Assembly (NCBI GenBank): GCA_963817915.1
Contig: CAWFQL010000012.1
Span: 608,001-672,000, forward strand
Direction of reading: 5' to 3'
DNA length: 64,000 nt
Source of the DNA: an uncultured candidate division Zixibacteria bacterium
GTDB lineage: Bacteria > Zixibacteria > MSB-5A5 > UBA10806
Part shown: piece by piece, positions 2,125 to 12,043 of the stretch
How positions within the stretch are numbered: position 1 is the stretch's first letter
Layout: each line of letters begins with the position of its first letter
Made by a program: the position numbers and the translations under genes
The notes under the pieces: model-generated
Seen by the model: only the letters and a program-made list of their open reading frames with translations
Database searches by the model: none
Told to the model about the DNA's origin: nothing

Positions 2125-2145
2125 GTGCCGAAGGGAGGTGAAACC

Positions 2146-2211
2146 ATGCCGGCAAAGAAGAAAGCTGCAAAGAAGAAAGCCACAAAGAAGGCTGCCAAGA
2201 AGAAAAAATAA
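2146..2211 (+). CDS. 21-aa Lys/Ala-rich basic micropeptide MPAKKKAAKKKATKKAAKKKK (not in the ORF track)
   Basis: Perfect SD GGAGGTGA at 2134-2141, ATG 2146, TAA 2209-2211, terminator immediately downstream. Confidence 0.75.
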   Translation: MPAKKKAAKKKATKKAAKKKK

Positions 2212-5888: not shown

Positions 5889-6866
5889 ATGGTAACTCAA
5901 AAGACAATAGAATTAAAGGATATTGATCCACGTCTGCTTCTTGGCAATGACCATTCGCATCTAAAGCTTATCGAAGACGAGCTCGAAGTTCAGATTATTG
6001 CCCGCGGCGATTGGATCAATGTCAAAGGCGAATCCGACAATGTCGATAAAGCGATCAAAATAATCTATGACATCATAGATCATGTAAAGGCCACCGGCGA
6101 GCTTAATGAACGGTATATCATATATTCCATAGCGGTTGTCATGGAAAATGGCTCCGGCCCGTCAAAAGATGTGGATAATGAATCCGGGGTCATCGCCTCG
6201 CTTGCCACTCAGAAAATAATAAAACCCAAGACAGTCGGCCAGAAATCATATATAGATATGATGGAAGCGAAAGATATCGTATTCGTAATCGGACCGGCTG
6301 GAACGGGAAAAACCTATCTTGCTGTAGCCATGGCAGTCAAAGCGTTCAAGAATAAGCAGGTTGCCAGGATTGTCCTGACCAGACCCGCGGTCGAGGCTGG
6401 TGAGAATCTGGGCTTTTTGCCGGGAGATATTCGCGCGAAAGTTGACCCATACCTAAGACCGCTTTATGACGCACTTCAGGATATGATGATGTTTGAGAAA
6501 GTTAAAAAGCTCATGGAATTAGGTGTAATCGAAATCGCCCCACTGGCCTTCATGCGCGGGCGCACGCTCAATAACGCTTTTGTAATTCTAGATGAAGCGC
6601 AGAACACGACCAGCGCCCAGATGTTAATGTTTCTAACTCGATTAGGTGAAGGTTCTCAAGCCGTAATTACCGGTGATGTTACTCAAATCGATTTAGTCAA
6701 CAAAGGCGCCTCCGGTCTTCTACCCACGCAAAAAATATTGGGCCATATTAATGGAATCGGATTTTGCCAGCTAACTGAAAAAGATGTGGTCAGGCACAGG
6801 CTGGTTCAGGATATAATCAAAGCCTATGGCAAGGTATCTGAAGCCAAGAAAAAGGCCAAAGGATAA
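5889..6866 (+). CDS. phoH: PhoH family ATPase (YbeZ-like)
   Basis: GPAGTGKT, RPAVEAGENLGFLPGD, LAFMRGRT, DEAQN, DVVRHRLV. Confidence 0.93.
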   Translation: MVTQKTIELKDIDPRLLLGNDHSHLKLIEDELEVQIIARGDWINVKGESDNVDKAIKIIYDIIDHVKATGELNERYIIYSIAVVMENGSGPSKDVDNESGVIASLATQKIIKPKTVGQKSYIDMMEAKDIVFVIGPAGTGKTYLAVAMAVKAFKNKQVARIVLTRPAVEAGENLGFLPGDIRAKVDPYLRPLYDALQDMMMFEKVKKLMELGVIEIAPLAFMRGRTLNNAFVILDEAQNTTSAQMLMFLTRLGEGSQAVITGDVTQIDLVNKGASGLLPTQKILGHINGIGFCQLTEKDVVRHRLVQDIIKAYGKVSEAKKKAKG

Positions 6867-9104
6867 TGTTGTTTAATCTATTCAGAAAAAAACCGATGCA
6901 GGTTTCTATTGGAGCCGAGGAAAATAGTTCGGAGAAGACCAATGGTTCCTTTAGCGGCTACAAGCTTTGGTTTAGAATCGTACTCCCCGCGGCGCTTATA
7001 TTCGGGATTACGTTTCTTTATCCCATAGACAAAATTTATATGCCTATTGAGATTCCGCAGGTAGGCGAGATCGCATCTAGAGACGTACTGGCGCCCTTCG
7101 ATTATCCTATATTCAAATCTGATGACGAGCTCCGTAGAGACCGGCAGCTGGTTGTAGCCAATCTCAGGCCGGTTGTCGCGTTGGATACATTGATGACGAA
7201 TGCCATAGAATACCGCATCAGATATTTTTTCAAAATCGCCGACTCTCTCAACTCAAAATATACGAATCCTCCCCGGTTTATTCAGCTTATGCGCTCGGAA
7301 TTTCCATCGATCCCGGATAGTATTATTGTAGGTGTTAGAAACAATCTGAAAAGTCGCAGTTTTTCAAAAGTATGTATCGGTGTTGTTGATTCGGCAATGG
7401 AAACGGGTATATATTCGGATATAAATAATCTCCCTCTGGAGACTTCGGGCCTGGTTACCCTTGATAACAGGGGGCTTATCAAGACGATTGCTAGGGATCA
7501 ACTGGTTGATTCAAGTGAAGCCAGGATATATGTAGCGGCTCAAGTTCAGAAAATGCTTGGTTCTCAATCGCCAGCTCAGACTATCGCCGAAAGCCTGATA
7601 TGGCATTTTCTCGAACCCAACCTCGATTTCGATGAAGACGCGACTGAAATAAATAGAAATATAGAATTAGATGCCATCAAGAATGATAAGGGATGGGTCT
7701 ATAAGGGCGAAAAAATAATTCGCGCCAACGAAAGAGTAACCGAGCTTCATCGAGATAAACTTCTTTCATTGGCCCGTTACAGCAAGACCAGCCTTCGTCA
7801 GCAGGGATTCTGGCATTTTATCCTGCCTCCATTGGGACGGCTGTTCTTTATCGTATTTCCGATAATGCTCTTTGGATTTTACCTATATTCTTTTAGGCGG
7901 CATATTTTTGATTCCGATACGGCACTGACGCTATTTGCGTTTTTATTCGCGATACTGGTGATAATCCTGAATATCGTGATGGGGCAGACATATCTATCTC
8001 CCTATTTGGTGCCAATTACCATAGCCTCTATGCTCATAACTATTGCATATGATATAGAGACAGGACTTTTCCTTACATTCTCGGCATCATTATTAATGGG
8101 GATTTTGGCCGGCTTCAAGCTCGATATTGTTTTTGTAAGCATGGCGGCCGGGACTGTAGCGGCATTTGCGGTTAAGCAGGTGAGGCATAGGCATGAGTTT
8201 TATCGTTCGATATTGTATCTATCGATTGTCTATTTTGGAACCGTTTATGTGATTGAATCGGTAAAATTGACTCCGCCAGTCGATCTCTGGCGGCATGTGG
8301 GTTTTGCGGTCATTAACGGTTTTCTTTCGCCGATTCTGACAATAGGATTTTTACCGCTGGTTGAAACTACATTCAAATTGACTACCGATATCACGTTGCT
8401 CGAATTATCGGACTTAAACCGTCCGTTGCTAAAACGGCTCGCCCTAGAGGCTCCGGGCACTTACCATCACTCTATAATGATTGGTTCGCTGGCCGAGGAC
8501 GCCGCCAAGGCGATCAATGCCAATTCGCTTCTTAGCGAGGGTAGGCTCATATTATCATGATATAGGCAAAATGCTGAAGCCGGAATATTTTGTAGAAAAT
8601 CAAATGGGGGCCAAAAACAAGCACGAAAAATTGGCGCCATCCATGTCGGCATTAATTCTCGAAGCCCACGTAAAAGAGGGGAAAGAACTTGCGCAAAAGC
8701 ATGGCTTGCCCGAATGCATAATTGATTTTATTACGGGCCATCATGGCACCAGCGTAATGACATTTTTCTATGAAAAGGCCAAGACTCTGGAAGGCGAGGA
8801 TGTCGATATAAATGAATATCGTTATCCGGGGCCGAAGCCGTTAAGCAAGGAAGTGGCGATAGTGATGCTGGCCGATTCAGCGGAGGCCGCTTCGCGCGCG
8901 CTCGAAGATCCCAAACCGGCGAGAATTAAATCTTTGGTCAAGAAGACCATTTCGCTCAAATTTGAATCGGGCGAGCTTGAAAACTGCGATTTGACTCTCC
9001 GTGATCTCCATCAAATAGAGGAAAGTTTCTCGCGAGTCCTCACCGGGATATTCCATAGAAGAATAGTTTATCCCGAAAAAAAGCCTGAAGGGGTTAGATT
9101 CTGA
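6866..9104 (+). CDS. 7TM-HD phosphohydrolase (PgpH-like cyclic-di-AMP phosphodiesterase), split by a +1 frameshift near 8534
   Basis: Extracellular domain, 7 TM helices and APGTYHHS in ORF 6866-8560; YYHDIGK, HHGT and MLADSAEA in ORF 8481-9104. Removing one base gives about 745 aa. Conserved phoH-HD-ybeY context. Confidence 0.85.
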
Positions 9105-11674: not shown

Positions 11675-12043
11675 CTACTTAAGATGCTTGGATACTAACT
11701 TTGTCATCTCGAACATGCTTACTTTGTTCTTGCCGCCAAATACAGCAGCGAGAGCTGAGTCAGCATTGATCATGCGTCTGTTAACCTTATCCTGCAACCC
11801 GTTCTTCTTGATATAGTCCCAAAGCTTCTTGGTGACTTGGGTTCTCGGTAGAGGTTTGCTTCCGACTACTGCCGCCAACGCGTTGCTCGGAGTCATCGGC
11901 TTCATGAATGCCGCATTTGGTTTCCGTTTGGATTTAGCCTTTGGGGCTTTCTTCGCGACTTTCTTCTTAGCTACTTTCTTCTTTGCAACTTTCTTCTTGG
12001 CGGGTTTCTTCTTGGCTGTCTTTTTTGCTTTCTTAGCAGGCAT
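11675..12043 (-). CDS. SWIB/MDM2 domain protein with Lys/Ala-rich histone H1-like N-terminal tail
   Basis: FMKPMTPSNALAAVVG..LPRTQVTKKLWDYIKKNGLQD..INAD..VSMFEMTK; AGGAGG SD before ATG 12043; KKKVA repeats. Confidence 0.92.
   Translation of the reverse strand: MPAKKAKKTAKKKPAKKKVAKKKVAKKKVAKKAPKAKSKRKPNAAFMKPMTPSNALAAVVGSKPLPRTQVTKKLWDYIKKNGLQDKVNRRMINADSALAAVFGGKNKVSMFEMTKLVSKHLK

Follow-up and report, generated by a model that had tools for sequence, protein, structure and literature searches.

The locus described here raises the question of whether a lysine- and alanine-rich reading frame of 21 codons, found in the genome of an uncultured bacterium of the candidate phylum Zixibacteria, is a gene and, if so, what its product could do. 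The stretch of DNA analysed, referred to below as the window, comprises 64,000 nucleotides of one contig. An earlier note, made from the sequence of the window, had described the frame as an unannotated, free-standing micropeptide gene that standard gene callers would miss, and had likened its product to histone H1 tails and chlamydial Hc1/Hc2 proteins. The elements of the locus, given as position, strand, identity and basis, are as follows.

1-1476, plus: 3' part of the sigma-54 activator gene, encoding a helical hairpin, GAF, AAA+ with GAFTGA, and HTH (Pfam GAF, Sigma54_activat, HTH_8)
1504-1521, no strand: putative enhancer palindrome 1, TGCGAC-N6-GTCGCA (alignment conservation; best matrix score in the genome, 23.7, with a matrix trained on the same loci)
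1573-1590, no strand: putative enhancer palindrome 2, about 115 nt upstream of the sigma-54 box (second-best score in the genome, 22.7, same matrix)
1688-1704, plus: putative sigma-54 -24/-12 promoter, TGGCAC-N5-TTGC (box upstream in 50/50 loci)
1729-2124, plus: GxxExxY-family protein of the PD-(D/E)xK fold, 131 aa (TIGR04256, 88.8 bits against a cut-off of 35)
2134-2141, plus: Shine-Dalgarno (SD) site GGAGGTGA (GGAGG core ahead of the ORF in 50/50 loci; anti-SD in 16S)
2146-2211, plus: Lys/Ala micropeptide gene, MPAKKKAAKKKATKKAAKKKK, 21 codons, net charge about +12 (ORF reading and conservation)
2236-2266, plus: intrinsic terminator, 9-bp stem and T-tail, closing the operon (hairpin and T-run in 47/50 loci)

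The reading frame and its signals

The SD site is separated from the ATG at 2146 by four nucleotides (AACC), and the frame is closed by TAA at 2209-2211, ahead of the terminator, whose hairpin and T-run occupy 2236-2258. Lysine accounts for 12 of the 21 residues (AAG eight times, AAA four times), alanine is encoded twice each by GCA, GCT and GCC, and acidic residues are absent; the SD site with its 4-nt spacing, the composition of the peptide, the terminator and the mixed use of Lys and Ala codons had been pointed out in the earlier note and were confirmed. The 3' end of the 16S rRNA from the same genome is complementary to the SD site. By itself, the combination of SD site and ATG is poor proof of a micropeptide gene, since shuffling the window 100 times yields a match by chance in 11 cases and since, among 57 GGAGGTGA sites present genome-wide, 13 are followed by ATG and seven of these 13 begin ORFs no longer than 25 aa. 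Profile searches of Pfam and NCBIfam with the micropeptide of the window matched no family. A GTG at 2125, giving 28 aa, was considered as the start and rejected, as it lacks an SD site and the orthologues begin at the position of the ATG. An Rfam assignment of RyhB over the terminator was discarded as a chance-level match (E 0.79).

The runs of Lys codons stand directly before the terminator, and hisS and aspS lie downstream in the window, an arrangement that would suit an ORF acting in cis, in which translation of a Lys-rich leader controls the terminator (attenuation) or stabilises the mRNA, the peptide arising only as a by-product. Such a role is considered highly improbable. A separate sigma-70-like promoter sits 3' of the terminator, RNA folding of the micropeptide/terminator region yields no competing structure, and the downstream genes differ from locus to locus (vanZ, 5'-nucleotidase-like, PTS-like and uvrA-like, names read from sequence), with no lysine gene seen; moreover, the composition of the peptide is held over a 15-fold range of length.

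Further along the plus strand, an HD-domain membrane protein gene (6866-9104) appears to be divided between two frames that overlap (6866-8560 and 8481-9104), possibly by a frameshift or an assembly error.

Conservation in orthologous loci

The coding potential of the frame was assessed in the sequence that follows the GxxExxY gene at 50 orthologous loci (L001, L023 and L026-L073). Locus L025, whose GxxExxY gene is a paralogue retaining all four catalytic residues, was excluded; a K-rich ORF, sigma-54 box and palindrome are all absent from it. A GGAGG site and a K-rich ORF follow the GxxExxY orthologue in 50/50 loci. The ORF is complete and in frame in 48 of them, is cut by a contig end in one and is frameshifted in L066, where a 2-nt insertion behind the start codon breaks the frame. 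Starts are ATG (33), GTG (16) and TTG (1), stops are TAA (28), TAG (18) and TGA (3), and all 49 unbroken copies have P, V or A as residue 2. The peptides range from 15 to 146 aa (median 30) and differ by in-frame gain or loss of xAKKK pentamers, the frame being preserved through these changes in 49/50 loci. Their pooled composition is 53% K, 16.5% A, 13% T and 8% R, with D and E together at 0.2%, and the commonest pentamers are TAKKK (58 units), ATKKK (43), PAKKK (40) and VAKKK (18).

At the nucleotide level, 243 pentamer units correspond to 138 DNA sequences, in which third codon positions vary most, positions 1 and 2 being partly fixed by the procedure used to pick the units. Among Lys codon pairs, AAG-AAA is favoured (224 observed, 127 expected) and the slippery A-AAA-AAG is avoided (8 observed, 30 expected; range 18-45 in 500 shuffles), contrary to the genome-wide preference for AAA over AAG, although the 50 loci are kin, so that both the counts and the codon statistics overstate independence. 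Iterated AAA codons have been described to cause ribosome sliding (PMC4363877, in part).

Because all 50 orthologous loci carry the ORF, it is, on this comparative evidence, a real and conserved gene. The contrary reading, that of an untranslated, A/G-rich tandem DNA repeat mimicking a gene, draws on the low complexity of the sequence and on the frameshift in L066; it is scarcely credible, since a DNA repeat would not so preserve SD site, start, stop and frame while the codons interchange, and since it is the synonymous positions that vary most and the order of codons that avoids slippery runs. The earlier claim of selection at the protein level is thus borne out by the related loci.

Representation in databases

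In locus L043, the genes flanking the peptide bear consecutive NCBI tags (AMJ90_00935/00930) and accessions (KPL04422.1/KPL04421.1), and hence the NCBI annotation skips the peptide. When 14 of the peptides were compared with a set of 15 billion proteins, none was present (0/14), as against four of five neighbouring proteins used as controls; the GxxExxY protein of the window is likewise absent from this set. A 67-aa orthologous peptide is present letter for letter in the Atlas, in which the clusters found for the peptide are labelled only "hypothetical", apart from one with 23% HC2 members. The prediction that gene callers overlook the peptide therefore holds wherever it could be checked. A search for RNA sequencing runs containing the stretch returned none, which speaks neither for nor against transcription. 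In the literature searched, which comprised main texts and few subscription papers, no description of the peptide or of the operon was found.

A predicted sigma-54 promoter and its dedicated activator

The micropeptide gene is the last gene of a unit in which activator, two palindromes, sigma-54 promoter, GxxExxY gene, peptide and terminator follow one another. The earlier term "free-standing" is consequently apt for the protein, which carries no other domain; the gene is the last one of a predicted sigma-54 operon with its own activator. The activator comprises about 592 aa and starts 303 nt before the window (G000:C12:607698); its N-terminal helical hairpin and GAF domain were recognized from a model of an orthologue and from fold matches, and GAFTGA is kept in 21/21 rows of the activator alignment. 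The features of a sigma-54 operon are all present, including the -24/-12 box, upstream enhancers, GAFTGA and Walker motifs, and rpoN. Besides rpoN, the genome contains two HU/IHF genes and 13 sigma-54 AAA+ domains.

In the alignment of promoters, GGCA and TTGC are invariant or nearly so. At least one palindrome occurs in 50/50 loci and two occur in 36/50, with conserved spacing. Since the two top genome matches of the palindrome matrix fall at this promoter and the third-ranked site scores only 13.9, the activator is suggested to govern a one-operon regulon, with the reservation that the promoter and palindrome matrices were trained on the same loci and the argument is circular to that extent. 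In 29/50 loci the activator gene is found no more than 700 nt upstream; other genomes have it elsewhere. Across 251 genomes of the phylum, it was detected in 47, the nuclease-fold gene in 44 and both in 41 (E<1e-40). IHF-like sites in the window have two mismatches each; over all loci, 48 sites with at most one mismatch were counted, in 29/50 loci, compared with 20.5 in base shuffles (maximum 35).

The GxxExxY partner

The structural model of the GxxExxY protein (pLDDT 85) resembles Cas4 and restriction-type nucleases (Cas4 4ic1: Foldseek E 9e-5, VIA Z 7.9, rmsd 5.0, 101 aligned). The acidic residue of the (D/E)xK motif is missing in 50/50 orthologues, and the other motif residues are kept in part (E in 30; D in 16, with E in 32; K in 33). 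As the copy in the window also lacks the motif Glu and Lys, it is probably catalytically dead. The predicted complex of activator and pseudo-nuclease scored 0.56, the best control scoring 0.00 (at least 89% of contacts shared between runs, partner pLDDT at least 78), a weak pass of a kind that 18 of 157 solved complexes gave in calibration, as did both of the two mismatched pairs, among 215, that passed. As regards a feedback role, the prediction is a lead and not evidence; the pseudo-nuclease is regarded as accessory and may be a partner of the activator.

Variation of the module within Zixibacteria

The peptide is the most constant part of the module, as it outlasts in turn the nuclease gene, the sigma-54 box and the activator. 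In L121-L123 the nuclease gene is gone, while activator, palindromes, box and a peptide of 20-21 aa stay; the distance of 189-264 nt from box to start leaves no room for a nuclease gene. Family f10 encodes a divergent activator in 13/14 genomes, whose best match outside the family is a module activator. Here the Walker-A Lys is replaced by Arg in 12/12 loci, the GAFTGA loop is absent from all 11 loci parsed, and the sigma-54 box is gone (best score at most 3.7 in 11/12 loci and 11.2 in one, all 50 training sites scoring at least 14.2), whereas peptides of 27-222 aa are retained in 12/12 loci and the palindrome also stays. The f10 activator has likely been converted to a sigma-54-independent regulator. 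A decayed nuclease-fold ORF precedes the f10 peptide (10 ORFs; HHalign E 2.4e-4, probability 44%). In f15, short K/A ORFs stand before vanZ or a PTS-like gene, and in two f16 genomes two tandem K/A ORFs of 22-23 aa stand ahead of a SWIB gene; neither activator nor box was detected with these ORFs.

The f10 activators of L205-L216, with their dead Walker A and without GAFTGA, still span about 600 aa, and a conserved A-rich TTGC element comes after the f10 palindrome. In L203, a sequence resembling a -24/-12 box, 152 nt ahead of the f10 peptide, was rejected, as it falls inside the preceding ORF and is not conserved.

In 10 of the 19 families sampled, among them f9 with its 95 genomes, the queries used did not find the module, which is therefore not essential phylum-wide. 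Matches to the SD+MPxKKK pattern that proved to be N-terminal tails of larger proteins were not counted, and L141-L143, cut at contig ends, were left out of judgement.

Such tails are found in the phylum on SWIB, ribosomal protein S1 and zinc-ribbon proteins, so that K/A richness is a general trait of Zixibacteria. The window itself encodes a SWIB/MDM2-domain protein whose N-terminal K/A tail is H1-like (11675-12043, minus strand, 122 aa from the second ATG), and tailed SWIB proteins are common across the phylum. S1-like ORFs, recognized by eye, with a long K/A-rich N-terminal extension occur at G000:C9:95449 and in L124, L140, L151 and L153, and K/A-tailed proteins of 34-59 aa with strong SD sites, mostly CxxC...CC zinc-ribbon-like, in L129-L137 (f8, f12, f18).

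Other small ORFs were noted as well. A second free-standing ORF of 25 aa, with an SD site, a CxxC start and then K/A repeats, is located at G000:C16:395192 (minus strand, L022); no sigma-54 box was seen at it. Directly after an HU/IHF gene, at G000:C9:217631 (minus strand), there is a K/R/H-rich ORF of 31 aa, which we take to resemble ribosomal bS22. A conserved ORF of 46-47 aa with the motif YWHLYSLQ recurs in several families (L093, L100, L114-L119), one copy having a sigma-54 box 120 nt upstream.

Related loci outside the phylum

A scan of metagenomes with the peptide pattern returned 28 loci, namely four of the Zixibacteria type, six without a detected box (one of which has just 42 nt of upstream DNA) and 18 of high GC content with peptides of 16 or 21 aa; since the pattern itself selects similar peptides, their likeness does not amount to orthology. 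Viral contigs scanned in the same way gave no match. The 18 high-GC loci are probably from Eisenbacteria: three of the four organism-named homologues of one of their activators, at 80-82% identity, belong to this group, and the top Atlas cluster for the receiver protein agrees. A -24/-12-like box is found in 17/17 of these Eisenbacteria-type loci that have enough upstream DNA, at 151-169 nt (six loci) or 484-493 nt (11 loci) from the peptide, a receiver-only gene lying between box and peptide in the latter. A conserved GGCACGTCC motif was observed before the hairpin that follows the peptide in 17 Eisenbacteria-type loci (among L156-L183).

The Eisenbacteria-type activators, where the contig shows them, have the architecture receiver-AAA+-HTH. 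In a midpoint-rooted tree with the f10 rows excluded, they form a clade of their own (100/99), parted from the module activators of Zixibacteria by a branch (97/86) which they share with 11 paralogues of the window genome. Because they fall in another clade, either the link between peptide and sigma-54 would have arisen twice or the activator would have been swapped. As the peptide has repeatedly been coupled to sigma-54 with unrelated activators, tight control of its off-state is suggested to matter.

These arrangements also bear on the proposal that the peptide lends the pseudo-nuclease nucleic-acid affinity in trans, as a detached basic tail or as a cofactor. The two share an operon in 50/50 loci, loci that were, however, chosen by the nuclease gene, and a remnant of the nuclease fold still precedes the f10 peptide; yet a peptide is still encoded where the nuclease gene is missing, as in L121-L123, f15, f16 and the Eisenbacteria-type loci, in the last of which it is preceded by a receiver-domain gene or by nothing, and the proposal is considered very unlikely.

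Proposed function

The evidence is judged to lean slightly in favour of the micropeptide being an inducible, minimal polycation of the H1-tail/Hc2-like kind, which coats and compacts nucleic acid and is the principal output of a dedicated sigma-54 switch. From the conserved anatomy of the unit, a signal sensed by the helical-hairpin/GAF region of the activator would switch on its AAA+ domain, and the activator bound at the two palindromes would open an otherwise silent sigma-54 promoter. The short mRNA would carry the pseudo-nuclease with a weak SD site and the peptide with a perfect one and with anti-sliding codons, presumably yielding the peptide in excess. Judging by composition and by the precedent of Hc2 and AlgP, the unstructured xAKKK repeats may be sequence-nonspecific ligands of DNA, and probably of RNA, that neutralise the backbone and, in a stress or resting state, compact the nucleoid or quiet it, with the number of repeats tuning avidity. 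Against condensation it counts that peptides of only 13-17 aa, the shortest seen, may fall below the length needed to condense DNA well in the cell, that composition does not separate DNA from RNA, ribosomes or other polyanions, and that K/A richness is general in the phylum; the similar peptides without a detected box in f15, f16 and 6/28 metagenome loci count against the tie to sigma-54.

An RNA or ribosomal target, with the peptide as a stress-induced, small basic factor that silences translation or binds rRNA or the ribosome, is regarded as unlikely. The shortest peptides (13-23 aa) do match bS22, Thx and eL41 in size, and ribosomal protein S1 of the phylum bears similar K/A tails. Hc2 binds RNA more strongly than DNA and represses translation (PMC2848022, in part). 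On the other hand, lengths of 13-222 aa set by repeat number are unlike those of pocket-filling ribosomal proteins, the sigma-54 design points to an inducible product, ribosomal genes are not nearby in the loci read, and the genome has a separate ORF that is presumably bS22-like.

Quite unlikely, too, is a role as a counter-ion or scaffold for another polyanion, such as polyP or storage granules or anionic membranes, in the manner of AlgP/PhaF tails, or as a rapidly recycled store of lysine or nitrogen. Sigma-54 systems commonly respond to nitrogen or envelope stress. The KPAA repeats of AlgP, whose number varies, are found at polyP granules (PMC11894788, in part). However, ppk1 and ppk2 were not found in the genome (93.9% complete), in which a SET-domain methyltransferase was not found either, and the peptide has neither a targeting or dimerisation domain nor a hydrophobic segment.

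The nucleic-acid-compacting reading can be extended to a broader scenario, in which a sigma-54 switch of Zixibacteria, separately recruited in Eisenbacteria, would serve chiefly to flood the cell with a protamine-like micropeptide. Like the chlamydial Hc proteins, this peptide would package the nucleoid of cells that become dormant or differentiate, and the dead nuclease would be a feedback partner of the activator; as a whole, this scenario is doubtful. Should the compacting reading hold, bacterial H1-like polycations would be reducible to 13-30 residues, and such small polycations would be undercounted because gene callers and trypsin-based proteomics miss them. The module would give experimental access to nucleoid packaging and resting states in phyla without a cultured member, as well as a test of the minimum length at which a polycation still acts on chromatin, and the unit of activator, enhancers, promoter and peptide is compact enough to be rebuilt in E. 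coli.

Comparison with known systems

The closest likeness is to Hc2/HctB (PF07382) and the Hc2-like proteins of Bordetella/Burkholderiales (NF038053), which share Lys-rich pentamers with Ala, Thr, Val and Pro and the lack of acidic residues (PMC2848022, in part). Hc2 varies by such pentamers, condenses DNA, represses transcription as well as translation, and prefers RNA over DNA in binding (PMC2848022, in part). Expression of hctB involves alternative sigma factors, with sigma-54 upstream of sigma-28, and impairs growth of E. coli (PMC10597470, in part). Size set by repeat number without loss of frame and a tie to an alternative sigma factor, predicted in the present case, are thus common to both (PMC2848022 and PMC10597470, each in part). 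The differences are that Hc2-type proteins have 165-237 aa and the micropeptide family 13-222 aa, mostly below 35 (median 30); that a pentamer holds three basic residues here and two in Hc2 (PMC2848022, in part); that Hc2 has a conserved non-repeat C-terminal part, whereas most orthologues here end in K/R runs after the repeats; and that control would be exerted directly by a dedicated sigma-54 system instead of by sigma-28. The micropeptide is not a member of either family: the best of seven longer orthologues reached 19.3 bits with PF07382 (cut-off 40), and with NF038053 (cut-off 80) the 146-aa orthologue reached 24.9 bits, the 116-aa one 18 and the five shorter ones gave no match. The likeness to H1 tails and Hc2 put forward in the earlier note stands, therefore, for composition and variation in pentamer number; the family models are matched far below their cut-offs.

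AlgP/PhaF tails and the C-terminal domain of linker histone H1 likewise consist of disordered K/A(/P) repeats of variable number that are thought to bind DNA, and the K/A tail of AlgP, with its KPAA repeats, associates with the nucleoid and polyP granules (PMC11894788, in part). In these proteins the tail is attached to a folded domain; here there is nothing but the tail, which is also more basic (about 60% K+R). The folded N-terminal dimerisation or targeting domain of the Hc1/AlgP/PhaF type is absent, as the repeats run from residue 2 to the end. The ribosomal proteins bS22, Thx and eL41 have a fixed short length and a conserved sequence for one rRNA pocket; the peptides described here span 13-222 aa and match no Pfam or NCBIfam family.

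The partner gene passes the family cut-offs of GxxExxY (TIGR04256, PF13366) and shares the PD-(D/E)xK fold, and differs in that its orthologues lack the (D/E)xK acid in 50/50 cases and are single-copy and syntenic. With GAF-containing enhancer-binding proteins of the NifA/Nlh1 type the system shares the order GAF-AAA+-HTH, palindromic enhancers some 110 nt upstream, IHF-like sites and the -24/-12 box; it differs from them by the additional N-terminal helical hairpin of the activator and by a regulon that seems to consist of a single operon, encoding a pseudo-nuclease and a micropeptide.
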